Shown here piece after piece: positions 1 through 15,643 of a stretch of 39,184 nt of DNA. The notes beneath the pieces were generated by a model. It searched no databases and was not told the origin of the DNA. It saw only the letters and a program-made list of their open reading frames with translations. Every line of letters starts with the position of its first letter. Position 1 is the first letter of the stretch. Location of the stretch: the IMG/VR virus record IMGVR_UViG_2693429536_000016. One strand, given 5' to 3'. The DNA is from a virus (Duplodnaviria > Heunggongvirae > Uroviricota > Caudoviricetes). A program made the position numbers and the translations under genes.

Positions 1-90
1 TTGCCTCCCCCCCGTTGATGGGTAAAATAGCCGCAATTTTTCGTTTTCAACAAGCGCGGCGCGATGCCGCTTACTCAAGAAGAAAGAATT

Positions 91-165
91 ATGACGTTGT
101 CTCCTTATTTGCAAGAGGTGGCGAAGCGCCGCACTTTTGCCATTATTTCTCACCCCAATAATTAA
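91..165 (+). pseudogene. prfC: 5' remnant of peptide chain release factor 3 gene (prfC), truncated after ~22 native codons at the prophage junction
   Basis: ATG at 91 encodes [22 protein letters not shown] then NN-stop; the first 22 residues match the RF3 N-terminus as I recall it (native continues DAGKTT P-loop). Divergence at ~nt 154-160 marks the likely att core/phage boundary. Confidence 0.5.
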
Positions 166-319
166 GCCTAAATTAAAGCTCTTTTACTTTTTCAAAGTCC
201 TTTCAGTTAATTGATGTTTGGTTTTATAAGTCATTTAAATACAGTTAGTTATGTGGCTTCTTTAATTGAAAATTCTTTCATGTAACTTTAAATCGATCAG
301 GTTGCTTTCATCAAAAATC

Positions 320-376
320 TGTACATATACTTGTACATAATGTACAAAGCAGCAGAGGTGTTTTGCGATTTGTACA
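320..376. promoter_or_regulatory. Cluster of four TGTACA hexamers including 17-bp palindrome TTGTACATAATGTACAA (331-347) immediately upstream of int
   Basis: TGTACA at 320-325, 332-337, 341-346, 371-376; int RBS AAGGTGAG and ATG follow at 375-388. Likely int promoter/operator or recombinase/accessory-factor binding sites. Confidence 0.35.
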
Positions 377-385
377 AGGTGAGTA

Positions 386-1624
386 ATGGCGCTGTCTGAT
401 GCGTGGTTGCGTTCAGTCGTTGGAAAGGAACGTGATAAGGTTTTGGTTAAATCCGATCGTGATGGTCTGTCTGTCAGAGTATCACCGAAAGGTCGCGTAG
501 TGTTCCAATATCGTTATCAATGGGCAGGGAAAGGTGAGCGCCTTGATATCGGAACTTACCCGGCAACTGGATTAAAAGAGGCCAGAGAAGAAGTTATCCG
601 TCTCCGTGGTGAACTCGAGTCAAACCGCAATCCACGATTAGTCAAGCAGGCTGAAAAACGAAAAGCTACTGAAGCCATGACGGTAGAGTCTGTGATCCGT
701 GCCTGGTATGAAGCATATTGTGTAAAAAATAAAAAAGGTTCTGAACAGATACTCCGCTCGTTTGAGCTGCACCTGTTCTCTAAAATCGGGAATATCCCTC
801 ACGATGCAGCTACATTGCATGATTGGTTAGAAGTCCTAGAGCCTCTTAGCACCAAGACTCCAGCAATAGTAGACCGATTGCTAATTAACGCAAAGCAGGC
901 TCATGTCTGGGCGTATAAGAGAAAGCTCATTGAAACTCGCCCACTGTCGGATATCACGGGTAAAGATATGGATATCCGTAAAGGTCAGAAAAAACGGTTT
1001 CTGACACATGATGAAATTAACATCCTTTATGCTGCGATCGATGGTTCTCGAATGGTTCCTAAATACCGAGCCTTCATTAAACTATTGCTGCATTTTGGTT
1101 GCCGTAGTTCAGAGCTAATTACTGCTAGGGTGGATGATTTTGATTTCATAAATAAGGTATGGACTGTACCACCAGAACGACATAAGATTGGGGACATAAC
1201 AGGCGAACCGCTAAAGCGGCCCATTATTGAACCGGTTGAAGAGCTTATAAAATACGTTATCTCTATGAACAACGGTTCCGATATGCTTTTTACTAAGGAA
1301 GGAAGCAGGGAGCCAGTTGGTCGGACATCATTGCAGTCGCTGCCTTACAATTTAATGCAGTTCGCATGGCGACGTTTGGGGTATCAATTTCCTCATTGGT
1401 CTCTTCATGATTTGAGACGAACAGCACGAACAAACTTTTCTGATCTTACTGCTCCTCATATTGCTGAAATAATGCTCGGTCATAAACTGCCAGGGGTATG
1501 GCAAGTTTATGATAAGAGCGATTATCTAGAAGAACAGCGTAAAGCCTATCAGGCATGGTGGGATAGGGTTGATTCGATTCTTACTTACACTAATTTAGGT
1601 TCCAACAGACAGCCTATTGAATAA
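386..1624 (+). CDS. int: Phage integrase, tyrosine recombinase family
   Basis: 412-aa ORF with RBS AAGGTGAG; C-terminal catalytic region has HDLRRT...GH...Y arrangement typical of tyrosine recombinases; positioned at prophage edge next to att-like junction. Confidence 0.9.
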   Translation: MALSDAWLRSVVGKERDKVLVKSDRDGLSVRVSPKGRVVFQYRYQWAGKGERLDIGTYPATGLKEAREEVIRLRGELESNRNPRLVKQAEKRKATEAMTVESVIRAWYEAYCVKNKKGSEQILRSFELHLFSKIGNIPHDAATLHDWLEVLEPLSTKTPAIVDRLLINAKQAHVWAYKRKLIETRPLSDITGKDMDIRKGQKKRFLTHDEINILYAAIDGSRMVPKYRAFIKLLLHFGCRSSELITARVDDFDFINKVWTVPPERHKIGDITGEPLKRPIIEPVEELIKYVISMNNGSDMLFTKEGSREPVGRTSLQSLPYNLMQFAWRRLGYQFPHWSLHDLRRTARTNFSDLTAPHIAEIMLGHKLPGVWQVYDKSDYLEEQRKAYQAWWDRVDSILTYTNLGSNRQPIE

Positions 1625-1738
1625 TGAATAGACATACAGAGTAAGAAAATAGTAATGATTCTTGGATTATAATTAACTGGTTGCTGATATTTCGATTTGC
1701 CGATTTATGAAGAGACGGTCATTATACTTATAAAAACA

Positions 1739-1770
1739 CCACTCCTTATCCTTACAGAAATAAGGAGTGG
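1739..1770. terminator. Perfect 10-bp inverted repeat hairpin between convergent int and deaminase genes (probable bidirectional terminator)
   Basis: CCACTCCTTA(1739-1748) ... TAAGGAGTGG(1761-1770), 12-nt loop; A/T-rich flanks give a U-run on the - strand after the stem. Confidence 0.45.
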
Positions 1771-1776
1771 AAACAG

Positions 1777-3372
1777 TTATGGCTGAGACTCTGGTTTAGC
1801 AATCTCGTTTATAAATTTCTTAGCTACAACAGTCTCATACTTTCTATAATCATCAAGATATTGAACATCTATATGATTTTTGTAGCGAGCATTAAATTTA
1901 TTTGCATCCCCTGTTTTATCATCTTTACGTTCATCCGTTGGTCTGAAAAATTTATGGTAGCGGCGGGGTGATACCCCCTCAAAATCACAAAATATTACTT
2001 TGGAAGATTCTTCGTTCTTTGTTATTGCATCATTATGCAGATCAAGAGCAAGGCTTTTATCAAATGGCTCTATATATACTACTTTTTTTATTCCAGATGC
2101 GACAATATGCCTTGCACAGTTGTGGCAGGGATAGGTTGTCGTAAAAAGAATTTTATCTTTAGTATCGCCGTTTTGTTTTCTAGCCATTGATGTAATGACG
2201 TCCATTTCAGCATGAATTGATCTGGAGTACTCCATTACACTTGATATTTTGCTGTCTTTGTAAATGCCTTCTGCAATATTATCTAATTTGTTTAGAAGTC
2301 GTGTTATATTAATATCGGCAACAGTTTGTCCTGCGGAAATACCTAATACACTTCTTACTTCGGTTGATAATATGCTTTTTATACGGTCTTTAATTTTTTG
2401 CTTGTTTGCATCATTATAACACTTACCACTTTTGTGAACGCATCGATGATCGTTATCAAAATCATCACTGCTATACAACCCGCCACCAGCTTTAGGTACG
2501 TCGTTCTTACCCACGGCAAGCAAATTCCCTTCATCATCAAACAGTGCAGCCCCTACTTGACGTGATAAACAAGCTGATTGTAATGATGTTGAAAAGGCAG
2601 CATACATACCTTTCTCGTTAAAAGTTGGTGTTAAACCATTTTTGCCATGAATAAGACCGAAAAACCGATCAATCTTCTTCTTTAATTCACTTTTTTGGCT
2701 GAAGTTATTTTTAATAAAAAAATCTGAATCAAGAATGGTTTCCCCGGTTCTTTGTCCATACGGATCAGAGGATTTATTATCAATATTAATAATTAAATGA
2801 AGGTCGTCCTTTGTCGATTCGTCAGCAATGAGATTCGTAATTCGGTAATCTAAATCGCGCAAAACTCCTAACAAATAGAAATTATGCTGATATATAACTC
2901 TGAATAACTCTATTTCTTCCGGCCTTTTGAATTGATCAATGATGAAGACAGTACCTTTATATTCATCATTATTATAATCAATATTCTTTTTCGCTGCTGC
3001 GATTGCTGCAATAGCAGCTTCTGCAAGCAACTCATTTTTTTCGTAATGTTTACGAAGTTTATTGGCAATATCCTGGAGTTTTAAATGTCTATTAACTTGT
3101 GTGCTTTCGGATACCTTCAGTGCTGCTGGCTCAAAATATAATGGGTCTTCCATAAGCGCACTTATGCGGATGTGTACAACATTATACCCCCATTCTTTGG
3201 ATATCTCTTCGATAATTTTGTTTATCGTTTTCATGCCACATCCAACATATCCACATAATCCAAGATAAATATCTTTTGATTGTCGTGAATTCACAATCTC
3301 AAGTGATGATGCCGATGTTGAGCCTTTTTTTTCATTCAGCTTTTGTGGAGTTTTTTTTGCTGCTTCAGCCAT
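1777..3372 (-). CDS. Two-domain protein: N-terminal P-loop-like nucleotide kinase-like domain fused to C-terminal cytidine/dCMP deaminase zinc-binding domain (AvcD / anti-phage dCTP-deaminase-like candidate)
   Basis: 531 aa; glycine-rich motif LGLCGYVGCGMKT near N-terminus; C-terminal HAEMDVI ... YPCHNCARHIVASGIKKVVYIEPF (HAE + PCxxC zinc-binding deaminase signature). Low-GC gene inserted between int and xis. Confidence 0.6.
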   Translation of the reverse strand: MAEAAKKTPQKLNEKKGSTSASSLEIVNSRQSKDIYLGLCGYVGCGMKTINKIIEEISKEWGYNVVHIRISALMEDPLYFEPAALKVSESTQVNRHLKLQDIANKLRKHYEKNELLAEAAIAAIAAAKKNIDYNNDEYKGTVFIIDQFKRPEEIELFRVIYQHNFYLLGVLRDLDYRITNLIADESTKDDLHLIINIDNKSSDPYGQRTGETILDSDFFIKNNFSQKSELKKKIDRFFGLIHGKNGLTPTFNEKGMYAAFSTSLQSACLSRQVGAALFDDEGNLLAVGKNDVPKAGGGLYSSDDFDNDHRCVHKSGKCYNDANKQKIKDRIKSILSTEVRSVLGISAGQTVADINITRLLNKLDNIAEGIYKDSKISSVMEYSRSIHAEMDVITSMARKQNGDTKDKILFTTTYPCHNCARHIVASGIKKVVYIEPFDKSLALDLHNDAITKNEESSKVIFCDFEGVSPRRYHKFFRPTDERKDDKTGDANKFNARYKNHIDVQYLDDYRKYETVVAKKFINEIAKPESQP

Positions 3373-3382
3373 TGCTAATTAC

Positions 3383-3568
3383 CTAGTCGAAAACTATATC
3401 AGTATTTATTATTTCAAAAAATGCATCAAGAATTTCTTTATTTTTCTTTTTACTTTCAAATGAAATGACATTATCTTGATTAAATGTTGTTAATTCAATG
3501 CAGATAGAATCAACCTGATCATTGGCGGCGATGCTCGATTCTATTTCATTAAATGCTATTACATTCAT
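3383..3568 (-). CDS. Small acidic hypothetical protein encoded immediately upstream of (and co-oriented with) the deaminase gene
   Basis: 61-aa ORF ending 10 nt before the deaminase start codon; D/E-rich, protein-like composition; weak RBS. Could instead be non-coding leader/sRNA region. Confidence 0.3.
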   Translation of the reverse strand: MNVIAFNEIESSIAANDQVDSICIELTTFNQDNVISFESKKKNKEILDAFFEIINTDIVFD

Positions 3569-3665
3569 TTATCTTATCCAAACATAATAAAAAACCATAT
3601 GGCCTTTAGTGTACAACAAAACCATACTCTTTCCCCTCATTTTAGAGGGGGAAGTGTGGTCCACA

Positions 3666-3932
3666 TCATGTTTTTTCCCACCCATGAAAATGTTCACCTA
3701 GGCTGGTGAGGCATTTTATGTACATCAACTCTTTGAGTTGAATCATTATTTTAGTATTTTTTCTATCATTGTGTAAATGTCTTCGTTTCAATACATCATG
3801 CTTGGGGAGCGGTCCCCGTTTCCTGATAATTAATGCTTGTGGATAGCAACGTCCGTGCCTATATCGCTCAGACAGACGCTTACCGTGCCATAGACGTGTC
3901 TGTTCACATACGTCATTCAATAACTCCTGCAA
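3666..3932 (-). CDS. Hypothetical small basic ORF downstream of xis (doubtful)
   Basis: 88-aa ORF, very R/K/H-rich, overlaps xis 3' end; composition is not convincingly protein-like. Confidence 0.2.
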   Translation of the reverse strand: MQELLNDVCEQTRLWHGKRLSERYRHGRCYPQALIIRKRGPLPKHDVLKRRHLHNDRKNTKIMIQLKELMYIKCLTSLGEHFHGWEKT

Positions 3933-4107
3933 ACCTGTAAATCTTGCGTGACGCCCATTTATTTGGGCATGATTTAATATCAGGATCTGGAAAATCAGGC
4001 CTGTACTTCTGGCCAGTTCTCCGGTTTACGCTGTTCCAGCGAAGAACTGTCGATACTGAAACGCCACAGAATTCGGCAACTTGTTTTGTTGTCATTAAGT
4101 TGTTCAT
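3913..4107 (-). CDS. xis: Excisionase / AlpA-like helix-turn-helix DNA-binding protein
   Basis: Start MNNLMTTKQVAEFCGVSVSTVLRW (HTH) at 4107 in TAATG overlap with upstream gene stop; small size and position near int. Confidence 0.6.
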   Translation of the reverse strand: MNNLMTTKQVAEFCGVSVSTVLRWNSVNRRTGQKYRPDFPDPDIKSCPNKWASRKIYRFAGVIE

Positions 4108-4502
4108 TAGTTCACCTTCTGCGGTTGTGCAGTTGAAAGACTCATTCCAGCGCGTTGCTGCCAGACAACCCAGCCGAGAGCCATATCCCATGCCATGTAC
4201 TCGTTATCGCCGTTTTTGGCTCTCCGACGATCTACTGAGTCACCGAAACGCTTTTCCATGAATAATTCATAAGATATTCGTTCATTTGTGATGGTCATTA
4301 CGGGAGGAGCTAGGTAGAGAGGCGTTCCACCATTTTTGTTGGTAAGTGCAACTACACTTTTACTCAGCATCCATGCCACCGGCTTTTTATCAAGAGAAGC
4401 CAAAGCTATTTGTGCTAGTTCCATTTGCTCGCCACGGGTAAGTCTGTTTTCAAGCGGATTTTTAATGAATAATTCGATACGTTCTTTGGTAATAGAATTC
4501 AT
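4107..4502 (-). CDS. Hypothetical phage early protein
   Basis: 131-aa ORF, translationally coupled (TAGcATG) to upstream gene in the leftward operon. Confidence 0.5.
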   Translation of the reverse strand: MNSITKERIELFIKNPLENRLTRGEQMELAQIALASLDKKPVAWMLSKSVVALTNKNGGTPLYLAPPVMTITNERISYELFMEKRFGDSVDRRRAKNGDNEYMAWDMALGWVVWQQRAGMSLSTAQPQKVN

Positions 4503-4503
4503 G

Positions 4504-4899
4504 CTATTTCACCTTGATCTCAACATTTCGCAGCCGTAGCTCCACTGGCAGGTCTGACTTTCCGGTTAAAGCTAATGCGAGATTTTCTAGAGTAATGAGA
4601 GCTGTTATTGTTTTCCCCATACAGGCGTTATCACCAACACGCTCAAGATGCGGAGGGTCGAATACAACCACCGAAAAAGATGCGTCTGCAAATGGTAATG
4701 CACGAGAATCAGCTATCAGGTCAGGACTGATAATCAGGCGTTGCCCATCGCACAATGTATGCTCTTCCTTTCTGATATCGCTGAATATCGCCCGTTCGTC
4801 ATTTGTATCGAACCAGAACATGCGACTGCCACAGCACATGTCGAGGATTGCTGCATGTCCAGTCACTGGTTGCCCCCTTTGCGAAGCCGTTCCGCCCAT
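4504..4899 (-). CDS. Hypothetical protein with methyltransferase-like motifs (DMCCGS and FDPPH); possible small or fragmentary DNA methyltransferase
   Basis: 131-aa ORF; SAM-binding-like D-x-C-C-G-S and DPPH catalytic-like motif ~60 aa apart; too short for a complete MTase. Confidence 0.4.
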   Translation of the reverse strand: MGGTASQRGQPVTGHAAILDMCCGSRMFWFDTNDERAIFSDIRKEEHTLCDGQRLIISPDLIADSRALPFADASFSVVVFDPPHLERVGDNACMGKTITALITLENLALALTGKSDLPVELRLRNVEIKVK

Positions 4900-5213
4900 T
4901 CTTCAAGGGATTTCTCCGCATATTCACCAGACAGGCCATCAATCGGATGCGATTCATTAGCTAACTCTTCTTTCGCTGACAGAATCATGCGTGTAACGTC
5001 GAAAACTTCAGTCAAAGGCTTATTGATAAATCCGTGATTGAAAGCAGAAGCAAGACGGCTTGCGGTATAGTTAATACCCTCGTTGCGAGCCTCAGCACGT
5101 ACTTCATCGAATTTACGCACCAGATACTCAGCATTTGTTTCATTCACTTTCAGATCTCGCGGTACACATTTCCCGCGAAGAAAACCTTCCATTTCGAAAA
5201 CATTTATGCGCAT
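4863..5213 (-). CDS. Hypothetical phage early protein
   Basis: 116-aa ORF in leftward operon, overlaps neighbours by a few codons. Confidence 0.5.
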   Translation of the reverse strand: MRINVFEMEGFLRGKCVPRDLKVNETNAEYLVRKFDEVRAEARNEGINYTASRLASAFNHGFINKPLTEVFDVTRMILSAKEELANESHPIDGLSGEYAEKSLEEWAERLRKGGNQ

Positions 5214-5821
5214 TTGCGTAACTCCGATAACTCGTTAAAACGTTCCATAAACATCCCGTAGGCATGGCCTGGTGACAGTGGAATAACTTTGAACATCTCT
5301 GTTGCCGGGATGCCTTCCAGTACAGGCCAGAAAGAGCCATCATCAAGCCCGAGATCACGGCGTTCGGTTGCCAGCATGATTAGATCGGCATATTTCACAG
5401 GCGTACTCATAACCGGGGGCAACTCGTATTTCTCACGGATTACTGCGTCTATTTTTTCTTCCATCCGTTTATAGTCAGGAAGAAGGCGTTTCAGTGGTGC
5501 GGGGATGTCCTGGCAATACGCTTCTGTTGCATCATGCATTAACGCTTCAAAAGCAAATTCCTGCGGCACCAGCTGGCTGCAAAGCACCGCATGTTGGGCG
5601 ACGCTGTAGAAGTGAGAAAGATGACCGGCAAAGCGGCAGATATTTGAAAGGGAAACCGCGATATCGTTAATCACGATGTCGTTTTTATTTATCTTGTCAT
5701 AATAAAAATGCTTCCCGGAAAAAGTTTTAATAAATGACATTTTGTTCTCCACGTATATGCGCTGCACCGCGCTGAATTCGGGTAAAAGGAAGCCCTCGCT
5801 ATCAGGCGATTGTTGAGTCAA
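5204..5821 (-). CDS. HD-domain phosphohydrolase (5'-deoxynucleotidase-like, YfdR-like)
   Basis: Motifs ...SVAQHAV... and ...LMHDATE... (H...HD) typical of the HD superfamily; true start may be internal Met (MSFIKTF, ~5740). Confidence 0.6.
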   Translation of the reverse strand: MTQQSPDSEGFLLPEFSAVQRIYVENKMSFIKTFSGKHFYYDKINKNDIVINDIAVSLSNICRFAGHLSHFYSVAQHAVLCSQLVPQEFAFEALMHDATEAYCQDIPAPLKRLLPDYKRMEEKIDAVIREKYELPPVMSTPVKYADLIMLATERRDLGLDDGSFWPVLEGIPATEMFKVIPLSPGHAYGMFMERFNELSELRKCA

Positions 5822-5867
5822 TTACGTTTCCATAAATGCCCCCGCAGGGGCATTTGCAGCAATGAAA

Positions 5868-6692
5868 TCAGGCGGTGAAAGTACCAATAAAGGTTTCTAC
5901 TTTGCTGTCTTTGAATTTCTCAACAAGCAGATCACGAAATTCGTTAGCCATTTCTTCCTGGACTGCTTCCAACTGAATAATGCGCAGAACCAGTACAGGA
6001 CGATCGCCAGTGATAATGCTGAGGCGTAATTTAAACGGACGTTCTTTCAGACTTTCAAACGGAACGCATTTAAATTCAAATGCCACTGGCATAATATCTT
6101 TGGTCTTCGCTTCGACAGACTCCATCAGGGAGCGTTTTCCGCTGAAGTCATTATCTTCAAAATCAGCGGTCTGGTTTGCTTCAATCGTGATTTTACGGAC
6201 AGCCGCAGCCGCTTTTGTTGCCTGAATAGCGTCACCATTAGCATCAAAGCCTACAAGGTAGTCGGCCCAGTCTTCAATCCATTCTGCCAGTGACTTCTGG
6301 GAGTTACGCTCGCCGTTAACAGACAACAGAGCAGAGAACGGTGCTGTCTTTTTCAGTTTGAGAATGGCGGTGTTATCTGCGTGACCTGGTTCATCAATAG
6401 TACCCAGGTTAAGCACACTGACGGCACGCATATTATCAGCATCGATAAAGCAGCGGGTGCCTTCATCTGCAAGATCTTTAGAATAACGGGTAAAGTCATC
6501 GATGCTGGCAGTGGAAAGCGCACCACGGAAACGGAAGCGATTTAAATTAAATTTTTCCAGATCATGAATGCGGAAATTCTCAGGCAATGCCACAGCATCG
6601 GCACCAATCTTACTGATAATTTCATTAACACCCTGAGCAGAAATAAGGGCATGGATTTGATTAATTGCGGTTGCGTCTAAGTTCTGAGACAT
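5868..6692 (-). CDS. Conserved prophage protein, YfdQ/DUF2303-like
   Basis: 274-aa ORF adjacent to HD-domain gene, an arrangement I recall from CPS-53-type prophage early regions; function unknown. Confidence 0.5.
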
Positions 6693-6757
6693 AATAAGTC
6701 CTCACTATATAAAGATATTCAGTGATGAGATAAATAATCAGTTAATTAAGAACGATA

Positions 6758-7120
6758 TTAATGACCTGCTGCGCGGAGTTTTCCGTCAGGTTCACCGGCA
6801 AGAGTCAGTAATTGTCCCTGGTCTTCCTGCAGAATAGTCAGGCGACCACCGCGATTGACATACATCGGCGTTTCGGTGGTGTCTTCTTCAGAAATTTTCC
6901 CGCGGTTAGTCGGGCGAACATATGAGAGTTTGTGTTTGATTTTCACACGGTTCTCATCAAATGGTTCGATTTCCAGGTTGAGTGAGACCTTACCTTTGGT
7001 CTTCGTGTTCATCACACCTGAAGCGACTTCACTGAGAACTGCGCCGATTTTGGTTTCAAATACGCCGCCGTCCAACTCCCCGATAAATGCCTGCACATCA
7101 GTACTGCGTTCGCTAGCCAT
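6758..7120 (-). CDS. First gene of leftward early operon, hypothetical protein
   Basis: Start ATG at 7120 (MASERSTD...) preceded by GAGGAG RBS; the ORF-track N-terminal extension (7121-7306) overlaps a structured leader and is unlikely to be coding. Confidence 0.5.
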   Translation of the reverse strand: MASERSTDVQAFIGELDGGVFETKIGAVLSEVASGVMNTKTKGKVSLNLEIEPFDENRVKIKHKLSYVRPTNRGKISEEDTTETPMYVNRGGRLTILQEDQGQLLTLAGEPDGKLRAAGH

Positions 7121-7168
7121 TTTGCTGCTCCTCATCATATCGACCCTGCAAGGTCGGTTGGTTTCTCC

Positions 7169-7303
7169 ACAAAACAGAGAAGAACACCTGCGGTGGCAGC
7201 CGCCCGGATGGATTGGGTTATGAGCCCGTCGTCCGGTGATGCTCTTCTCTGTTTTGTAAAAAGAGCGGTACCAGCCGGAAGCAAGTGTACAAACTGGTAC
7301 CGC
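7169..7303 (-). promoter_or_regulatory. Structured leader of the leftward early transcript: 18-bp inverted repeat (7169-7186 / 7240-7257) and 10-bp perfect inverted repeat GCGGTACCAG/CTGGTACCGC (7265-7274 / 7294-7303)
   Basis: Long stems read directly from the sequence between the putative pL/OL (7463-7515) and the first leftward gene; candidate nut/put-like antitermination or terminator elements. Confidence 0.3.
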
Positions 7304-7462
7304 CAAAGCAGTGGCTGTTGTGGTGACCGGTGCTGATCTCCGGCTTGCGGTTATTTCAGACTCTCACGGGCGTTTAATTGCCCCGCCGAACAGCTCTTTT
7401 CCGCAATAGCTGCAATGTCTTTCGCGCATCAGCCTGCGCATTCACCACAACTCTAAAAACAA

Positions 7463-7515
7463 ATGTAGGATATCCAACATGTAAGTGTCAAGAGTTTATG
7501 TTGGTTATCCTACAT
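7463..7515 (-). promoter_or_regulatory. OL-type operator pair with leftward promoter (pL candidate)
   Basis: Two 18-bp palindromic sites ATGTAGGATATCCAACAT (7463-7480) and ATGTTGGTTATCCTACAT (7498-7515); on the - strand TTGACA (7491-7486) -17 nt- CTACAT resembles -35/-10. Confidence 0.5.
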
Positions 7516-7531
7516 AAAAAGATAGGCTCAT

Positions 7532-7557
7532 AAAAAAACCGGGGATACCCCGGTTTT
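7532..7557 (-). terminator. Rho-independent terminator downstream of cI
   Basis: A7 - ACCGGGG ata CCCCGGT - TTTT: GC stem with U-run on the - strand after the cI stop. Confidence 0.5.
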
Positions 7558-7577
7558 GCGATAGTGAGGAAGATGTG

Positions 7578-8231
7578 TCAAAAATCCATTATTACTTGTT
7601 TGACAAGACCAACTATTCTGCAGTTCTCACCGCATTCAATAGTTTTATAGTTAGGATTTAGTGGGACGAGATACCTGTTCGGCCAGTCCTCAACAAATTT
7701 TTTGAGTGTCGCTTCTTGCCCACCATTGATATGGGCAACAACGATTTTTCCGTTAATACACTCTGTATCAATAATATCTGGCTCTACGATAACGATAGAA
7801 CCTTCTGGTATCGATGGTGAGCCGAGGGGATTGGTCATTGAATCACCACGGACCCGTAGTGCAAATGCCATTTCTGATACAAGGGCGGTAGTATAAACCC
7901 ACTCTTCAGCATCTTCTTTCCTGACACCAGGCTCCGTCATTGTCCATGAACCCGCCTGAACCCACGAGATGAGGGGGACTTTTTTAACTGCGAATATTTC
8001 AGGTTTTAGATTTATCTTTGGTTCAGGCGAGCCTTTTCCGCTAACAAGCCACAGAGGATCGCATTTAAGTGCGTTGGCTAGGGCTTGAAGGTTGGCTCCA
8101 TTTGGTTGGTAGTCGTCCTTTTCCCATCCAGTAACCGTGACACGGTTCACACCAGTCAAATCAGCCAGTGCTTGTTGTGTCAGGTTCAGTTCTTTTCGCC
8201 TTTGGCGAATACGATCACTCATGTTCATCAT
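7578..8231 (-). CDS. cI: CI-type prophage repressor (N-terminal XRE HTH + C-terminal LexA/S24-like autopeptidase domain)
   Basis: HTH ...LNLTQQALADLTGVNRVTVTGWE...; C-terminal ...VRGDSMTNP... and ...KIVVAHINGGQEATLKKF... consistent with S24 Ser/Lys dyad fold; divergent from cro and flanked by operators. Start is one of the Met codons at 8231/8228/8222. Confidence 0.85.
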   Translation of the reverse strand: MMNMSDRIRQRRKELNLTQQALADLTGVNRVTVTGWEKDDYQPNGANLQALANALKCDPLWLVSGKGSPEPKINLKPEIFAVKKVPLISWVQAGSWTMTEPGVRKEDAEEWVYTTALVSEMAFALRVRGDSMTNPLGSPSIPEGSIVIVEPDIIDTECINGKIVVAHINGGQEATLKKFVEDWPNRYLVPLNPNYKTIECGENCRIVGLVKQVIMDF

Positions 8232-8294
8232 GTAGGCAATCCTACCACATGCCAATGTAGGATTCTTGACATTGGTATGTTGGATATCCTACAT
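8230..8294 (+). promoter_or_regulatory. OR-type tripartite operator with rightward promoter (pR candidate)
   Basis: Three related 18-bp sites: 8230-8247 (ATGTAGGCAATCCTACCA), 8255-8272 (ATGTAGGATTCTTGACAT), 8277-8294 (ATGTTGGATATCCTACAT); TTGACA at 8266-8271 and CTACAT at 8289-8294 with 17-nt spacer; cro ATG at 8327. Confidence 0.55.
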
Positions 8295-8326
8295 TTCTGC
8301 TTAACGTAATTTAACGGGAGACAGAA

Positions 8327-8524
8327 ATGCGGAAATCCGACGTGATTAATTATTTCGGCGGAGTTTGTAAAACCGCCGAAGCCCTAGGTATTAAGCATCC
8401 GTCTGTTTCAGAGTGGCCTGAGATTATTCCTGAAGGCCGAGCGTACCAGTTAGAAAAAATTACTAACGGAAAACTGAAAGTTGACGTGTCTTTATATCAA
8501 AAGACTAACAGTGCTGCGGCATAA
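8327..8524 (+). CDS. cro: Cro-like small DNA-binding regulator
   Basis: 65-aa ORF divergent from cI, RBS GGGAG; size and position match Cro/YdaS-like proteins. Confidence 0.65.
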   Translation: MRKSDVINYFGGVCKTAEALGIKHPSVSEWPEIIPEGRAYQLEKITNGKLKVDVSLYQKTNSAAA

Positions 8525-8551
8525 AAACACCACAGAAATGAGGAATTAACC

Positions 8552-9130
8552 GTGGGTAAAGAACCTGAATGGAAAGTTGATAAACAACCAGCATGGCTGG
8601 TGGCAGCAATACGAAGAACGATTGCTGATTTACCTCATGGCTATGAGGAAGCAGCAGAAATTCTTGGTTTGTATAAATCTGATGATATCACCCCAGCAAA
8701 AGATCAATTGCATAACAGACTGCGTAGCGGTGGGGATCAAATTTTTCCACTTGAGTGGGCCATGGTTTTACAGGATGCCAGTGGTACCAGGCATATAACA
8801 GATGCAATAGCCCGTCGTAGTAATGGGGTGTTTGTGCCGCTGGTGGTCATTGATGACATTGACAATGGTGACATTAATCAGCGGCTGATGGAGTCAATAG
8901 AATGGATTGGCAAGCATTCCCAGTACTTACGCAAGGCAACTGCTGATGGAGTTATTGACCAGGCTGAGCGTGAGCAAATCGAAGAGAACAGCTACCAAGT
9001 AATGGCGAAGTGGCAGGAGCATTTAACACTGTTATTTCGTGTTTTTTGTGCGCCGGAAAAGAGTAACGCCCGCGAGTGTGCAGCTCCGGGCGTCGTGGCG
9101 TTTTGTGTCTGTGGAGAAACTAACGCATGA
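8552..9130 (+). CDS. Early regulatory protein, CII/YdaT-like (tentative)
   Basis: GTG start with AGGAA RBS; occupies the cII position after cro; assignment is by position and vague family resemblance only. Confidence 0.3.
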   Translation: MGKEPEWKVDKQPAWLVAAIRRTIADLPHGYEEAAEILGLYKSDDITPAKDQLHNRLRSGGDQIFPLEWAMVLQDASGTRHITDAIARRSNGVFVPLVVIDDIDNGDINQRLMESIEWIGKHSQYLRKATADGVIDQAEREQIEENSYQVMAKWQEHLTLLFRVFCAPEKSNARECAAPGVVAFCVCGETNA

Positions 9131-9732
9131 ACAGTTTAACGGCAAATAACCGTTTGTCGCAACAGCTGGTGGTCAGTGTCGCTGAACACCTGTTGTTACG
9201 GCATGAATGCAGATTACCAAATCACCTGGCTGTAAGTAACCACAGAGAACTTTACCTGACTGTGGGGGGCGAGTTGTGCAGGAACTTAACCGCTGGTTTC
9301 GTGATGGAAGAGGGCTTTATGTCCATGTTATTCGTTGGGAGCCAGAAACACAGCGCGTTATCTATCTTCGCAAAGACTACCCGCATGAGTGCTTTAGTCC
9401 TTTGTGGAAATTCAGGCGTGATTTTGTTGAGTGTGAAGGACCACCAGCACATTGATTCTGCCATTCCGGGACGTTACACTGTTCAGGCACCTTATAAAGC
9501 GGGTGCCGGGATTGGCGTCCTGAAATTGATTACTGAGCATAACCGCGCTCATGCGGTTTTTTCGTGTCATGAGCATTGCTACGCCCAAATTATGGTGGGG
9601 CGTACAGGGCCGACTTCGGTCGGGCCGGGTTCGGTAGTCTCCGGTAACGCCAACCCTGTACGTCTCACCACCTCTGTGATTGGCGTCCCATGTGGTGAGT
9701 TTTCTAAAAAACTGACTACCGGGGCTGTCACT

Positions 9733-10290
9733 ATGACTACTCTCCCAACCCTCTCTCAACCTGAAATTGCCATCGTTGATGGTCAGGCTGTTACATCTTC
9801 TTTGGCTGTTGCTGACTTCTTCTCTAAACGTCATGACGATGTTCTGAAAAAGATTCGCATTTTGGATTGTTCTCCAGAGTTTTGTGCCCGCAATTTTGCG
9901 GAGACATCAATTTTGGTACGCCAGCCCAACGGCGGTACTCGCAAACTACCTTGCTATCAAATAACCCGCGATGGCTTTGCGTTTCTTGCTATGGGTTTCA
10001 CGGGTAAACGTGCTGCCCAGTTCAAAGAGGCATACATCAATGCCTTTAACCAGATGGAGAAACAGCTTTCAAAGCCCGCTGTACCGAGCGACGTTGCACA
10101 TAACGCCAGTGTTCTCTATTCCTACATTTCATCAATTCATCAGGTCTGGTTGCAGCAGCTTTATCCCATGCTGGAAAAAGCTGAATCACCTCTGGCTGTA
10201 AGTCTGTATGACCGAATTAACGATGCGGCATTTCTTGCCCGTCTTATTCATTCGTCGCTGAACTCTTCAGAGGTAAGGGGGCGCAAATGA
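9733..10290 (+). CDS. Rha-family phage regulatory protein (antirepressor-like)
   Basis: Internal start MTTLPTLSQPEIAIVDGQAV... with conserved-looking ...PCYQITRDGFAFLAMGFTGKRAAQFKEAYINAF...; the ORF-track upstream extension (9127-9732) has poor protein-like composition. Confidence 0.5.
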   Translation: MTTLPTLSQPEIAIVDGQAVTSSLAVADFFSKRHDDVLKKIRILDCSPEFCARNFAETSILVRQPNGGTRKLPCYQITRDGFAFLAMGFTGKRAAQFKEAYINAFNQMEKQLSKPAVPSDVAHNASVLYSYISSIHQVWLQQLYPMLEKAESPLAVSLYDRINDAAFLARLIHSSLNSSEVRGRK

Positions 10291-10511
10291 TCCGGAATAT
10301 TTTCAAACGATTTACCAATCAGACTTTCCGTTGTCCTCGCCCCGGTCAGTGGTACACCACGCCTGCAGGGCATGTTCTACGTGTTAGCCTGGTGGACCGT
10401 GAATGTCAGAAGGTGATTTGTGAACCGCTGGGTCGTAATTACCGCGTCAGTATGCCGCTTATAGCCTTTCGCTCCGGAAAAAACATGAAGCATCTCGGAG
10501 GTGCGGCATGA
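10287..10511 (+). CDS. Hypothetical small protein
   Basis: 74-aa ORF coupled between Rha-like and replication genes. Confidence 0.4.
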   Translation: MIRNIFKRFTNQTFRCPRPGQWYTTPAGHVLRVSLVDRECQKVICEPLGRNYRVSMPLIAFRSGKNMKHLGGAA

Positions 10512-11500
10512 GTCTGTTAATGACATCCCAGCCCATTGTGATAAATCGTGATCTTGCATGCCGTATTGGTCTGAATGAGGCAATTGTGTTGCAGCAGCTT
10601 CATTACTGGCTGAATGAAACGAATTCAGGCACTGAGCATGGCGGAATTCGCTGGGTTTATAACACGACAGAACAGTGGCTGGAGCAGTTTCCGTTCTGGT
10701 CAGAGTCCACTCTGAAACGCACATTTGCAAGCCTGAAATCACTTGGGGTTTTGCGTCGCGAGCAACTCAATAAATCGAAGCGTGACATGACCAACTTCTA
10801 CACGATCAACTATGAAAGTGAGCTTTTAGAAGAGGTCAAAGTGAACGAATCCATCAGGTCAAAATGCACTTCTCCATCGGGTCAAAGTGACCTGATGGAT
10901 GGGCGCAAAATGACACGATCCATTGGTTCAAAACGACACGCTGTCATCGGGTCAAAATGGCCCAATGATCTTACAGAGAATACAACAGAGATTACTACAG
11001 AGAATAAAACCTCTTCTCGTCCGGACGCTTCGCAACCGGACACGCAAACGGCTGAACAGGAGTTTTTAACTCGCCATCCTGATGCGGTTGTATTCAGCCC
11101 TAAAAAGCGCCAGTGGGGAACGCAGGATGATTTGACCTGCGCACAGTGGCTCTGGAAAAAAATCATCGCCCTGTACGAGCAGGCCGCCGAATGTGACGGC
11201 GAGGTGGTTCGTCCCAAAGAACCGAACTGGACAGCATGGGCAAACGAAATTCGCCTGATGTGTGTGCAGGATGGTCGTACTCACAAACAAATCTGCGAGA
11301 TGTACAGCCGCGTCAGCCGTGATCCGTTCTGGTGCCGTAACGTGCTCAGCCCGTCGAAGTTGCGGGAAAAATGGGATGAGCTTTCCCTGCGCTTATCGCC
11401 GTCCGTCAGCACGCACACAGAAAAACGTGAAGACCCGTACTTCAAAGCCAGTTACGACAACGTGGACTACAGCCAGATCCCGGTAGGATTCAGGGGGTGA
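10508..11500 (+). CDS. Replication initiator, lambda O-like replisome organizer
   Basis: RBS GGAGG; N-terminal region typical of phage replisome-organizer proteins; contains an internal iteron array followed by an AT-rich stretch, as in lambda O/ori. Confidence 0.55.
   Translation: MSLLMTSQPIVINRDLACRIGLNEAIVLQQLHYWLNETNSGTEHGGIRWVYNTTEQWLEQFPFWSESTLKRTFASLKSLGVLRREQLNKSKRDMTNFYTINYESELLEEVKVNESIRSKCTSPSGQSDLMDGRKMTRSIGSKRHAVIGSKWPNDLTENTTEITTENKTSSRPDASQPDTQTAEQEFLTRHPDAVVFSPKKRQWGTQDDLTCAQWLWKKIIALYEQAAECDGEVVRPKEPNWTAWANEIRLMCVQDGRTHKQICEMYSRVSRDPFWCRNVLSPSKLREKWDELSLRLSPSVSTHTEKREDPYFKASYDNVDYSQIPVGFRG
10834..11010 (+). repeat. Putative origin of replication: six ~23-bp tandem iterons (GGTCAAAaTGaCAC...CATC) followed by AT-rich repeats
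   Basis: Direct repeats beginning ~10834, 10857, 10879, 10902, 10925, 10949; then ACAGAGAATA-type AT-rich repeats at 10973-11010, all inside the O-like gene. Confidence 0.5.
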
Positions 11501-11991
11501 TCATGAGTCTTTTGAATGAAGTTCAGAAATTCATTGAAGCCCATCCGGGGTGTACTTCCGGAGACATTGCGGATGCTTTTGCAGGTTACTCACGGCAGCG
11601 CGTTCTGCAGTCTGCAAGCAAGTTACGTCAGAGTGGGCGTGTGGCTCACCGTTGTGAAGGAGATACACGCAGACATTTCCCACGCCTGACTGAGAGAGCG
11701 CAGGAGCCGGAACCACAACCAGTTCGTGAAACCAGACCTGTGCGCAATTTCTATGTCGGCACTAACGATCCCCGGGTGATTTTGTGCCTGACCCGCCAGG
11801 CTGAAGAACTGGAGTCAAGGGGCTTATACCGTCGTGCTGCAACCGTGTGGATGGCGGCATTCCGTGAAAGCCACTCCCAGCCAGAACGAAACAATTTTCT
11901 GGCGCGTCGTGAGCGGTGCTTACGGAAAAGCAGCAAGCGCGCTGCATCAGGTGAAGAGTGGTATCTATCAGGGAATTACGTGGGGGCTTAA
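11497..11991 (+). CDS. Hypothetical protein (possibly PerC-like regulator; weak)
   Basis: 164-aa ORF (likely start ATG 11503); contains ...GLYRRAATVWMAAF... reminiscent of PerC-family activators; low certainty. Confidence 0.4.
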   Translation: MIMSLLNEVQKFIEAHPGCTSGDIADAFAGYSRQRVLQSASKLRQSGRVAHRCEGDTRRHFPRLTERAQEPEPQPVRETRPVRNFYVGTNDPRVILCLTRQAEELESRGLYRRAATVWMAAFRESHSQPERNNFLARRERCLRKSSKRAASGEEWYLSGNYVGA

Positions 11992-12644
11992 TGAGTAATA
12001 AATATTGCCAGGCGCTGGTGGAACTGCGGAACAAACCAGCCCATGAACTGAAGGAAGTGGGCGATCAGTGGCGCACGCCGGACAACATTTTCTGGGGAAT
12101 TAACACCCTGTTTGGCCCGTTTGTTCTGGATCTGTTCACTGATGGTGATAACGCCAAATGTGCCGCTTATTACACTGCGGAAGACAACGCGCTGGCGCAT
12201 GACTGGTCAGAACGTCTTGCGGAGCTTAAAGGTGCTGCCTTTGGTAATCCCCCGTACAGCCGCGCCAGTCAGCATGAGGGGCAATACATCACCGGCATGC
12301 GTTACATCATGAAACATGCCAGTGCTATGCGTGATAAAGGCGGGCGCTATGTTTTCCTGATCAAAGCTGCCACCAGCGAAGTGTGGTGGCCGGAAGATGC
12401 AGACCATATTGCTTTTATTCGCGGGCGTATTGGTTTTGAACTGCCAGCCTGGTTTATCCCGAAGGACGAGAAGCAGGTGCCGACAGGCGCTTTCTTCGCT
12501 GGTGCTATTGCTGTTTTCGACAAGACCTGGAAGGGACCGGCAATCAGCTACATCGGGCGCGATGAACTTGAGGCATGTGGTGAGGCGTTTCTGGCGCAGG
12601 TTCGCCAGCAGGCAGAAAAACTTGTCAGGGAGATGGCGGCATGA
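11991..12644 (+). CDS. Phage DNA N6-adenine methyltransferase (Dam-family, NPPY motif)
   Basis: Start in TAATG overlap with RBS TGGGGG; catalytic motif FGNPPYS; typical size for phage Dam-family enzymes. Confidence 0.75.
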   Translation: MSNKYCQALVELRNKPAHELKEVGDQWRTPDNIFWGINTLFGPFVLDLFTDGDNAKCAAYYTAEDNALAHDWSERLAELKGAAFGNPPYSRASQHEGQYITGMRYIMKHASAMRDKGGRYVFLIKAATSEVWWPEDADHIAFIRGRIGFELPAWFIPKDEKQVPTGAFFAGAIAVFDKTWKGPAISYIGRDELEACGEAFLAQVRQQAEKLVREMAA

Positions 12645-12967
12645 CGACGTTAACTCAATGCCAGCAGCAGGTGCTGGATATGCTGATTTCTTACCAGCAA
12701 GAGCGTGGCTTTCCGCCAACCAATCAGGAGGTGGCAACCATGCTGGGATACCGTTCAGTGAATGCAGCGGTGGAGCATCTTCGCGCACTGGAGAAAAAAG
12801 GCGTCATCACGATAAAGCGTGGCGTGGCCCGGGGGATCACGCTTCATACCGCAGTGAAGGACGACGACAGCGAAGCGGTCGGTATCATCCGCGCACTGCT
12901 TGCCGGTGAGGAGAGCGCCAGGTTGCGTGCAGCCCACTGGTTACATGAGAGGGGCCTGAAAGTATGA
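12641..12967 (+). CDS. LexA N-terminal DNA-binding-domain homolog lacking the peptidase domain
   Basis: 108 aa; QQQVLDMLISYQQERGFPPTNQEVATMLGYRSVNAAVEHLRALEKKGVITIKRGVARGITL aligns closely by eye with the E. coli LexA winged-helix domain (recalled sequence); no S24 domain follows. Confidence 0.6.
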   Translation: MTTLTQCQQQVLDMLISYQQERGFPPTNQEVATMLGYRSVNAAVEHLRALEKKGVITIKRGVARGITLHTAVKDDDSEAVGIIRALLAGEESARLRAAHWLHERGLKV

Positions 12968-13353
12968 AGTTGATCCTTCCTTTCCCGCCCAGTGTGAACA
13001 CGTACTGGCGACACCCCAACAAAGGGGCATTTGCTGGTAAGAGCCTGATAAGCGAGGCGGGGCGAAAATTTCAGAGCGCGGCGTGCGCAGCAATAGTTGA
13101 GCAGTTACGTCGTCTGCCGAAACCAACGTCGGCACCTGCTTCAGTGGAGATCGTGTTGTTTCCGCCGGATAACCGGATCCGTGATCTGGACAACTATAAC
13201 AAGGCGCTGTTTGACGCCCTGACCCACGCGGGTGTGTGGGAAGACGACAGACAGGTGAAAAGAATGCTGGTGGAGTGGGGACCGGTTATCCCGAAAGGGA
13301 AGGTCGAGATCACTATCAGTAAGTACGAGAAAACGGCGGGTGCAGCCGCCTGA
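12964..13353 (+). CDS. rusA: RusA Holliday junction resolvase
   Basis: 129 aa; conserved acidic motif ...RIRDLDNYNKALFDALT... and overall size typical of RusA. Confidence 0.85.
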   Translation: MKLILPFPPSVNTYWRHPNKGAFAGKSLISEAGRKFQSAACAAIVEQLRRLPKPTSAPASVEIVLFPPDNRIRDLDNYNKALFDALTHAGVWEDDRQVKRMLVEWGPVIPKGKVEITISKYEKTAGAAA

Positions 13354-13372
13354 TTAAGAGGAGAAACGAAGT

Positions 13373-14182
13373 ATGAATAATCTGATGGTCATTGATGGTA
13401 TTGAAGTTCGTCGTGATGCTTATGGGCGTTACAGCCTGAACGATCTGCATCGCGCAGCAGTAGCATCTGGTGCAAATGCCAGAACCAAGGAGCCAGGAAA
13501 GTTTCTTTCCAGCCAACAAACTGTTGAGCTTGTTCATGAATTGACCAACACCCAGAATTTGGGTGTTGACCCGGTGAGTGTGATTCATGGGGGAAATGAA
13601 CGGGGAACGTATGTCTGCAAGGAACTGGTGTATGCCTATGCAATGTGGATCAGCCCGTCATTCCATCTGAAGGTGATCCGTACTTTCGACATGGTAACCA
13701 GCGCACCGGAAAAATTATCCGGACAGGCTGCTGACAAGATGCAGGCTGGTGTGATTCTGCTGGACTTTATGCGCCGGGAATTAAACCTGTCTAACTCTTC
13801 AGTGCTTGGTGCCTGTCAGAAACTCCAGGAGGCTGTTGGCTTACCGAATCTGGCACCGCGCTATGCCATTGATGCTCCTGCTGACGCGCCTGATGGCTCA
13901 AGCCGCCCCACGCTGTCACTGAGTGCACTGCTGAAGCAGTATGGTATCCGCCTGACAGCTAATCAGGCATATCACCAGATGGCGAAGCTGGGGATCGTTG
14001 AACAACGTGAACGATACAGCCGCACTGCGATTAACAACATCAAAAAATTCTGGTCGCTGACAGCGAAAGGCTGCATGTTCGGCAAGAACATCACCAGTCC
14101 CGCAAATCCGCGCGAGACGCAGCCGCATTTCTTCGAATCCCGGTTCCCTGAGCTGTTAAAGCTGCTCGATACCGTTCATTGA
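13373..14182 (+). CDS. KilA-N domain protein (antirepressor-like)
   Basis: RBS AGAGGAGA; N-terminal ~100 aa resemble KilA-N DNA-binding domain (..YSLNDLHRAA..). Confidence 0.5.
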   Translation: MNNLMVIDGIEVRRDAYGRYSLNDLHRAAVASGANARTKEPGKFLSSQQTVELVHELTNTQNLGVDPVSVIHGGNERGTYVCKELVYAYAMWISPSFHLKVIRTFDMVTSAPEKLSGQAADKMQAGVILLDFMRRELNLSNSSVLGACQKLQEAVGLPNLAPRYAIDAPADAPDGSSRPTLSLSALLKQYGIRLTANQAYHQMAKLGIVEQRERYSRTAINNIKKFWSLTAKGCMFGKNITSPANPRETQPHFFESRFPELLKLLDTVH

Positions 14183-14183
14183 G

Positions 14184-15179
14184 GTGACCGTGAGAGCGCT
14201 ACTGACCCCTGAAATTGCCCCGCGTATGGGGATCGTATTGTTCAGGCCAGGTTCAGAGCTGATGCCCCTGTTTATGCAGGGGCGTGTCCTGCTGGAGCCT
14301 GAGCCGGAACGTTATTCATCTTTCGCCAGTGGTGCCGTTCCGGCGGCATCACAACCGCTGGCGGATGATCCTGCCGTTCGGGCCGTGTTCCGCAATGAGG
14401 CAGTGATCCGTCGTGCTGGTGGCGTGGAATGTCTTGAAAGCTGGTTACTTCGTGAAAAAGGCTGCCAGTGGCCTCATTCCGACTGGCACAGCGAGAACAT
14501 GACAACAATGCGACACGCGCCGGGCGCAATCCGTCTGTGCTGGCACTGCGATAACCAGCTGCGCGATCAGTTCACGGAACGACTGGAATCAATGGCAACG
14601 GATAACTGTACCCGCTGGGTGTTGTCTGTTGTGCGTCGGGATCTCGGTTTTGATGACAGTCACGTTGTGACAATGCCGGAACTGTGCTGGTGGCTGATTC
14701 GTAATGACCTGGCGGATGCCTTACCGGAAAGTGCAGCCCGTAAGGCACTGAGATTACCGAAGCCTGTTGTGCCGTCTGTCACCCGGGAAAGTGACCTTGT
14801 GCCTTCGGTTCCTGCCACCAGCATCATCCAGGATAAAGCGAAAAAGGTGCTGGCGCTGAAAGTGGATCCGGAGTCGCCGGAGTCTTTTATGTTACGCCCA
14901 AAACGTCGCCGCTGGGTTAATGAAAAGTACACGCGCTGGGTTAAGACACAGCCGTGTGCATGTTGTGGAAAGCCTGCTGATGATCCCCACCACCTGATAG
15001 GTCACGGTCAGGGTGGAATGGCTACAAAAGCGCATGACCTTTTTGTGTTGCCTTTGTGCAGAAAGCATCACGACGAGCTGCATGCGGATACCGTGGCATT
15101 TGAAGAGAAGTATGGCTCCCAGCTGGAGCTGATATTTCGTTTTATCGATCGTGCGCTGGCAATAGGCGTGCTGGCCTGA
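14184..15179 (+). CDS. DUF968-like phage protein with C-terminal Cys/His (HNH-like) motif
   Basis: GTG start; C-terminus PCACCGKPADDPHHLIGH...LCRKHHDELH has CxxC ... HH ... C ... HH spacing typical of HNH/zinc-finger nuclease folds. Confidence 0.5.
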   Translation: MTVRALLTPEIAPRMGIVLFRPGSELMPLFMQGRVLLEPEPERYSSFASGAVPAASQPLADDPAVRAVFRNEAVIRRAGGVECLESWLLREKGCQWPHSDWHSENMTTMRHAPGAIRLCWHCDNQLRDQFTERLESMATDNCTRWVLSVVRRDLGFDDSHVVTMPELCWWLIRNDLADALPESAARKALRLPKPVVPSVTRESDLVPSVPATSIIQDKAKKVLALKVDPESPESFMLRPKRRRWVNEKYTRWVKTQPCACCGKPADDPHHLIGHGQGGMATKAHDLFVLPLCRKHHDELHADTVAFEEKYGSQLELIFRFIDRALAIGVLA

Positions 15180-15196
15180 TTTTGTGGAGAAAGTTG

Positions 15197-15568
15197 ATGC
15201 GTGATATTCAAATGGTTCTTGAACGTTGGGGGGCATGGGTGGCAAATAATCACGAGGATGTGGAATGGTCATCTGTTGCTGCAGGTTTTAAGGGATTAAT
15301 TCCTTCGAAAGTAAAATCCCGCCCGCAATGTAGCGATGACGATGGCCTGATCATTAGCTCTGCGATGACAGTTCTTAAGAAAAAGGAACCGTATCAATAC
15401 GAATTACTGGAAATGTATTATGTGTATGGGGTTACATTACGGGCGTTGGGGGTAAAACTGGGGATATCACTTAATCAGGTTGTTATCAGACTGCAGAAAG
15501 CTGAAGGGTTTATTGACGGTTGTCTGGCAATGTTGGGGGTATCTTTAGAAATTGATTGTTACATATAG
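15197..15568 (+). CDS. Late-gene antiterminator Q-like protein
   Basis: RBS GGAG 8 nt upstream; located directly upstream of the late/lysis region; N-terminus MRDIQMVLERWGAW resembles Q proteins of 21/82-type lambdoids. Confidence 0.55.
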   Translation: MRDIQMVLERWGAWVANNHEDVEWSSVAAGFKGLIPSKVKSRPQCSDDDGLIISSAMTVLKKKEPYQYELLEMYYVYGVTLRALGVKLGISLNQVVIRLQKAEGFIDGCLAMLGVSLEIDCYI

Positions 15569-15643
15569 TAATAAATTCAATCAAAGTAAATAATCATATT
15601 TTATAATAACCTCCTGATGATACCTGTTCATTGGGAGGTTATT

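Follow-up and report, generated by a model that had tools for sequence, protein, structure and literature searches.

A lambda-like prophage junction in the 5′ end of prfC and the probable rebuilding of the gene at its far end

A 39,184-nt stretch of viral DNA (IMG/VR record IMGVR_UViG_2693429536_000016; 'the window' below means this whole stretch) opens with a reading frame that begins as release factor RF3, the product of prfC, and stops after 24 codons. The locus raises two questions: whether the prfC start at this end belongs to the host or was supplied by the phage, and whether the gene that was cut is lost or is put together again at the other end of the prophage. We find that the left end of the window is the attL of a lambda-like prophage in prfC, an identification that is correct, already known and ordinary; prfC is a standard site for Stx phages and the site of the Stx1a and Stx2c phages of E. 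coli clonal complex 119. As to the fate of the gene, we consider it very likely that the lambdoid prophage was inserted by recombination in the prfC core and that a surrogate start at attR rebuilds RF3.

Table 1. Coordinates of the features at the integration end of the window
Feature	Position	Strand	Remarks
yjjG-prfC spacer, host intergenic	1..90	+	K-12 reference locus (L004) 5325-5414; native prfC upstream region
Residual prfC′ ORF, 24-aa stub	91..165	+	native codons 1-22, 2 phage Asn codons, stop
att core (identity/overlap region) ATTATTTCTCACCC	142..155	.	sole copy in the window; insertion duplication in LC727876
P′ arm of attL	156..385	+	diverges from K-12 at nt 156; four TGTACA motifs
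int, 412-aa tyrosine integrase, P4/IntSXT type	386..1624	+	Pfam PF13356, PF22022, PF00589; phrog_1 integrase
Probable xis, 64 aa from internal Met	3913..4107	-	phrog_1553 'excisionase', E = 3.5e-35

The host side of the junction and the att core

In an alignment with prfC of E. coli K-12 MG1655 and its upstream region, a check that had been proposed in an earlier, sequence-only reading of this DNA, nt 1-155 of the window were identical to K-12 at 155 of 155 positions, with divergence beginning at nt 156. The first base of the window is the first base past the yjjG stop codon, and the identity ends at the second base of prfC codon 22 (in the K-12 reference locus yjjG ends at 5324 and prfC starts at 5415). 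That the phage integrated inside the first ~22 prfC codons, which the earlier reading had proposed, is thus borne out by K-12 identity up to nt 155 followed by phage DNA. The window starts at the equivalent of K-12 position 4609324 and was evidently trimmed to the end of a gene; the boundary of the prophage lies instead at nt 142-155. One sigma-70-like site is present in the spacer, at 1-28 (TTGCCT-16-TAAAAT), and is a consensus match only. Since the identity of 155/155 includes the 90-nt spacer and the segment abuts yjjG, this end, judged by its match to K-12, is the native prfC 5′ end, severed from the rest of the gene. The sequence-only reading had held that a single junction cannot tell a native 5′ end from a phage-supplied replacement; in this case the identity through the spacer, starting right after yjjG, does so in favor of the native one.

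In the residual reading frame, nt 91-156 encode 22 RF3 residues; two Asn codons contributed by the phage (157-162) and a TAA stop (163-165) follow. The earlier assignment of nt 91-162 to the RF3 N-terminus was therefore right as to the protein but took in the two Asn codons. After the His-Pro codons, K-12 continues with GGACGCCGGTAAGACT, the P-loop codons, while the window has CAATAATTAAGCC; translation and comparison with K-12 agree with the previous statement that the frame reads Asn-Asn-stop in place of DAGKTT, and the P-loop is absent in the window. The same stub is labeled an incomplete pseudogene by PGAP in strains 13TMH22 and 1303. Using window 1-400 as a query, a match was found in 5425 of 5426 complete E. 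coli genomes, so the resemblance to prfC is real and not due to chance. Matches that spanned the junction, covering at least 80% of the 400-nt query and extending into the phage arm, were found in 701 of the 5426 genomes (12.9%).

The att core covers prfC codons 18-21 and two bases of codon 22 and encodes the I-I-S-H-P region before the GTPase P-loop. It had been expected near nt 150-160, which is the right area, the exact core being 142-155. The same 14 bp are annotated as 'duplication due to insertion' in LC727876 and related GenBank records. A second copy was sought across the window and none was found, the only match being a chance one with 2 mismatches at 15237; attR therefore lies outside the window, beyond nt 39184.

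The direct repeat at the two prophage ends, whose comparison had also been proposed, could be read in strains 1303 and 13TMH22 and in phage PV98-693, the window itself having one copy. In E. coli 1303 the core is present twice, in direct orientation and 47,100 bp apart, and flanks a full-length prophage whose attL is identical to window 1-400 at 396 of 400 positions; the order in this strain is yjjG, prfC stub, int and dCTP deaminase at one end and J, Lom, tail fibres, dinI-like gene and prfC at the other. Strain 13TMH22 has the same two junctions and the duplicated core around an ~18-kb remnant. In the GenBank record of Stx2c phage PV98-693, exactly these 14 bp were marked by the depositors at both ends as the insertion duplication.

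The integration module and the remaining prophage genes

The int gene, which is apparently intact, starts 229 nt downstream of the prfC codons of the stub. Its product has an arm-binding domain at residues 3-90 (PF13356, Arm-DNA-bind_3, which we take to be the DUF4102 family of Smyshlyaev 2021), a central domain and a catalytic domain at residues 205-379 (PF00589). When Int was aligned with 16 homologues (17 sequences in all), the catalytic residues R240, K267, H341, R344, H366 and Y375 fell in invariant columns. No NCBIfam model specific for Int was found; the sole match, to PRK09692, was far below the cut-off. Compared with the Stx1a/Stx2c phages at prfC and with phages cdtI and 2H10, the int region shows 96-98% DNA identity.

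The four TGTACA motifs of the P′ arm (at 320, 332, 341 and 371, together 320-376) lie just 5′ of int, and the P arm has four further copies within ~190 nt of the core; the total for the window is 13 in 39 kb. Most homologues of the same broad clade, across many genera and whether linked to prfC or stubless, have two GTACA sequences ~12 nt apart in the 100 nt 5′ of int, and often a third just before the int start codon, compared with a background of ~0.05 per 100 nt. The enterobacterial relatives linked to lepA have GTCCA/GGACA at those positions instead of GTACA. This variation of the motif with the integrase lineage fits arm-type Int-binding sites that overlap the int control region. By their sequence and placement, the TGTACA/GTACA repeats are candidates for arm-type Int-binding sites, for a part of the int promoter region, or for both.

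The match of the excisionase family phrog_1553 covers only residues 29-92 of a 92-aa ORF at 3913-4191, and residue 29 is a Met. The true xis is probably the shorter frame given in Table 1, which overlaps the stop codon of the upstream ORF at 4107-4502. In contrast to lambda, int and xis are here 2.3 kb apart, on opposite strands and convergent.

The window also encodes a lambdoid gene set consisting of a CI-like repressor (7578-8255, minus strand), a CII-like regulator, a Rha/Ash-domain regulator, a DNA methyltransferase and a gpA-type large terminase. Tail genes follow up to gpJ-type and Lom-type genes, named from the relative in E. coli strain 219, and the window ends inside the Lom-like ORF. 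An anti-phage dCTP deaminase of 531 aa is encoded at 1777-3372 on the minus strand, opposite to int, and is an apparent insertion between int and xis; it scored 468 bits with NCBIfam NF041025 (cut-off 400) and E = 1e-164 with the PADLOC dCTPase model. Several related prfC prophages have a gene of the dGTP triphosphohydrolase family in the same slot, and the slot beside int seems to swap nucleotide-depletion defence genes. At 16892-17944 on the plus strand is a 350-aa N6/N4 DNA methyltransferase (PF01555) whose best PADLOC match is MTase_II (E = 1.6e-152). It is probably an orphan phage methylase, no restriction partner having been noticed for it.

The nearest relative of the late region is in E. 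coli strain 219 (L087, NZ_CP020514 4538000-4587900), with 93% coverage and 97.4% identity. The strain 219 prophage sits at dusA and not at prfC, with an intact dusA beside a different integrase and, at the far prophage end, a truncated 'tRNA-dihydrouridine synthase' stub; it is another case of gene-end replacement. The presence of this late-region relative at dusA with a different integrase shows that these lambdoid phages exchange their int/att modules.

The far junction and the fate of prfC

An identical mosaic prophage was sought in complete E. coli genomes and none was found; at best, 73% of nt 1-16000 and 93% of nt 15000-39184 were covered. For this reason attR was studied in relatives. 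In 13TMH22, 1303 and PV98-693, the phage supplies 21 codons at attR in frame with the host DAGKTT sequence. This surrogate start has ATGACAAGCCTTTTGGCC...-type codons, in frame and 5′ of the core (ATG ACA AGC CTT TTG GCC GCA GAG GTA GCG AAA AGA AGA ACC TTT GCA, then the core). The rebuilt prfC of the relatives is an intact ORF of 528 aa, compared with 529 aa for the native gene, and that of 13TMH22 scored 1088 bits with the TIGR00503 equivalog model (cut-off 467). Thus the relatives do have an intact prfC, and it lies at attR with a duplicated core; an intact prfC elsewhere with no duplicated core, which the sequence-only reading had named as evidence against integration, was not what was found.

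The surrogate and native starts can be aligned over 14 codons, 6 of which contain the 8 nucleotide differences between them, and all of the differences are synonymous. Exclusively synonymous differences indicate selection on the encoded peptide. From these alignments, the synonymous divergence would also lower homologous recombination between the two prfC starts. Junctions of the attR type were found in 684 of the 5426 genomes, near-equal to the number of attL-type junctions. Among plasmid records, there were 4 matches to window 1-400 and 5 to the attR query; in plasmid NZ_CP024617.1 (88.9 kb) the phage-derived end of the attR query (its first 90 nt) overlaps with a feature annotated as 'site-specific integrase'.

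A hypothetical attP was also assembled in silico by joining the core to the P arm of attR in 13TMH22 on one side and to window 156-700 on the other. The free phages 2H10 and cdtI each gave a single unbroken match to it with 100% coverage and 97-98% identity, and phage Ayreon matched 87% of it. In records taken from prophages, those of Stx phages among them, it fell into two places, as expected. The surrogate prfC start is retained in the free phage genomes.

The native upstream region of prfC is replaced by phage sequence at the attR of the relatives. A sigma-70 consensus site directed toward prfC was sought in the 219-nt phage spacer 5′ of the surrogate start, and none was convincing; the sole terminator-like match in the spacer is a palindrome read by eye as the LexA box of the divergent dinI-like gene. 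Two palindromes of this spacer, CACTGTGTTTGTATACAGTG and AACTGTATGAATAAACAGTG, were read by eye as LexA boxes (CTGT-N8-ACAG), and both overlie a promoter-like TTGACA-18-AAAAAT that points to the dinI-like gene (L001 28600-28680, on the attR side of 13TMH22). The palindrome sequence of the 13TMH22 attR spacer is also carried at L003 2340-2400. These putative LexA boxes would place SOS-regulated signals just upstream of the rebuilt prfC.

In the course of events that we favor, strand exchange occurred within the 14-bp core, the phage P′ arm begins at nt 156 with int following at 386, and the original start is left as a 24-codon stub on the native upstream region. The other phage arm would be at attR, beyond nt 39184, with the 21-codon surrogate start that is shown in the relatives, and the fusion of this surrogate in frame at the core would yield in the window prophage the same full-length 528-aa RF3 that the relatives encode. 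With such in-frame rebuilding at attR, integration need not destroy prfC. Excision would presumably need both Int and Xis. Since attR is beyond the window and no identical prophage was found, we infer the restoration of prfC in this prophage from relatives that share its att/int module.

The strongest competitor is the view that integration inactivates prfC here, the surrogate start being silent or absent and the lysogen living without the non-essential RF3. Bobay 2013 lists prfC among the genes 'disrupted' by prophages. For an O103 strain with an Stx1 phage in its prfC, Ogura 2007 (PMC2323221) described a changed RF3 N-terminus and the removal of the authentic promoter and RBS, and regarded expression of the rebuilt gene as unknown and prfC as not essential. 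The lack of a consensus promoter 5′ of the surrogate start and the location of attR outside the window also speak for inactivation. However, the in-frame ORF of the relatives scores as a full-length prfC equivalog, the restriction of all 8 differences to synonymous positions is difficult to account for unless a functional N-terminus was selected for, and the surrogate start has been preserved in free phage genomes. Inactivation is, in our judgment, unlikely, and the intact ORFs at attR in relatives argue against the label 'disrupted' of Bobay 2013.

Considerably less probable is a prophage that has been rearranged or partly deleted, with loss of the right junction and perhaps of the rest of prfC. 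Such remnants occur at prfC, as in 13TMH22, the right end of the prophage is outside the window, and its mosaic is not matched exactly in any complete genome. Nevertheless, its 39 kb read as a complete lambdoid layout with int, xis, CI-like, CII-like, terminase, gpJ-type and Lom-type genes, and the almost equal numbers of attL-type and attR-type junctions across genomes (701 versus 684) also speak against such a remnant. Phages of this group carry a prfC-like 5′ fragment, and one could ask whether nt 91-156 are this mimic and not host DNA; the chance is negligible, since the 155 nt including the spacer are 100% identical to K-12 and abut yjjG, whereas the phage version departs from the native start in codons 3-8, lacks one codon and carries the 8 synonymous changes. 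Equally negligible is an integrative conjugative element of the SXT/R391 type, which shares the prfC target and, according to PMC8138268, the integrase cluster, since the window has lambdoid functions with no conjugation genes seen and an att/int module 97-98% identical to that of cdtI and 2H10.

Rebuilding of RF3 at attR remains our preferred reading, and to it can be added the rather improbable proposal that the junction is more than a scar and acts as a promoter swap. Nt 1-90, the native upstream region, and the stub are directed straight at int in the lysogen, and in the circular phage the surrogate prfC start takes the same position upstream of int. No terminator was predicted between the stub and int, the RNA fold showing no GC-rich stem followed by a U-run, so transcription from the native upstream region and stub may read through into int. 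If the proposal is correct, int would at all times have prfC-type expression signals upstream of it, and the state of integration would decide whether these are the native or the surrogate ones. RF3 synthesis in ~13% of E. coli strains would then hang on phage-borne signals, which adjoin the candidate arm-type Int sites and the SOS-regulated dinI-like gene.

For annotation, the 24-codon stub should be labeled an attL remnant of prfC and the prophage boundary placed at the core, 142-155. Contrary to Bobay 2013, lysogens of this kind should not be counted as having a disrupted prfC. The prophage is one more target-gene-restoring element, with an arrangement that is found in ~13% of complete E. 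coli genomes.

The integrase family and comparison with known systems

A scan of int loci, with one genome per species, returned 80 loci. Nineteen of these, with integrases 47-97% identical to the window Int, have a truncated prfC stub with the same end point 196-234 nt 5′ of int. The 19 prfC loci are from Gamma- and Betaproteobacteria and include Pantoea, Serratia, Pseudomonas, Marinobacterium, Methylomonas, Methylobacter and Kangiella as well as Rheinheimera, Halomonas, Microbulbifer, Variovorax, Methylibium and a Burkholderiaceae MAG, among others. Nine further homologues (40-46% identity) lie ~205-223 nt downstream of a truncated start of lepA (EF4) that reads MKNIRNFSIIAH(I/M) up to the cut. 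Their hosts are Klebsiella, Enterobacter hormaechei, Kluyvera, Phytobacter, Edwardsiella, a Piscirickettsiaceae MAG and Acinetobacter johnsonii (loci L036-L039, L041, L042, L046, L048 and L059, with int at 3001, or at 248 in L038).

The position of the cut in lepA, a paralogous translational GTPase gene, is homologous to that in prfC (directly after TFAIISHP), and the geometry is the same. In a crude NJ tree the prfC-linked and lepA-linked integrases are in one clade. As far as these comparisons go, the integrase clade appears to have moved between homologous P-loop-proximal sites in the paralogous genes prfC and lepA; lepA is a known Salmonella prophage site in the literature. For integrase homologues with neither a prfC nor a lepA stub (40-51% identity), a tRNA gene upstream was sought and none was found. 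These stubless homologues are from Xenorhabdus, Photorhabdus, Morganella, Acinetobacter and others (L017, L021-L033, L040, L043-L045, L047 and L049-L055), and most retain the GTACA repeat arrangement.

IntSXT was not recognizable among the best 120 Int homologues or the 80 genome loci. We place the window Int in the SXT (prfC) cluster on the basis of Smyshlyaev 2021 (PMC8138268), where the integrases of cdtI, SXT and related ICEs form one cluster inserting at prfC, together with the 97% att/int identity of the window to cdtI. Features of the IntSXT subgroup are present, namely the arm-binding and catalytic domains and insertion at prfC. SXT/R391 ICEs are defined by a conjugative backbone and an Int ~99% identical to IntSXT (PMC2791158). 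The 17-bp attP consensus of these elements, ATcATcTCtCACCCtGA (taken from PMC9058013), has a single match in K-12, at ATTATTTCTCACCCGGA, where the phage core is followed by GGA. Since the 17-mer match is the phage core with three more bases, the phage and the SXT/R391 ICEs use the same nucleotides. Phages and SXT/R391 elements are thus competitors for one short stretch of a conserved GTPase gene. The SXT ICE, too, reportedly brings in a new 5′ end and promoter for prfC.

The closest known systems are the prfC phages cdtI (AB285204), 2H10, Ayreon, the Stx1a/Stx2c phages of clonal complex 119 (LC727876-LC727902) and the O103 Stx1 phage of Ogura 2007, which share the 14-bp core and attL with the window and have an int and P′ arm 96-98% identical to it. 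The surrogate prfC start is likewise present on the other arm of cdtI, 2H10 and Stx2c phage PV98-693, those whose arm was read. The cargo and the remaining mosaic differ: the window carries the dCTP deaminase beside int, and no stx or cdt genes were seen in the examined parts of the window. SXT/R391 ICEs have the same prfC target site as the window prophage and share its integrase cluster according to PMC8138268, but they are conjugative elements of ~100 kb and not phages, whereas the window has lambdoid genes and conjugation genes were not seen in it.

Target-restoring elements at other genes include the integrases specific for the dusA 5′ end, phage 21 and e14 at the icd 3′ end, and Gifsy-1, a prophage at the lepA 5′ end in Salmonella. 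The lepA, dusA and icd elements follow the same strategy as the prophage described here, in that recombination takes place in conserved coding sequence and a substitute gene end is carried by the element. They differ in their target genes, and the icd phages replace the 3′ end of the gene and not the 5′ end.
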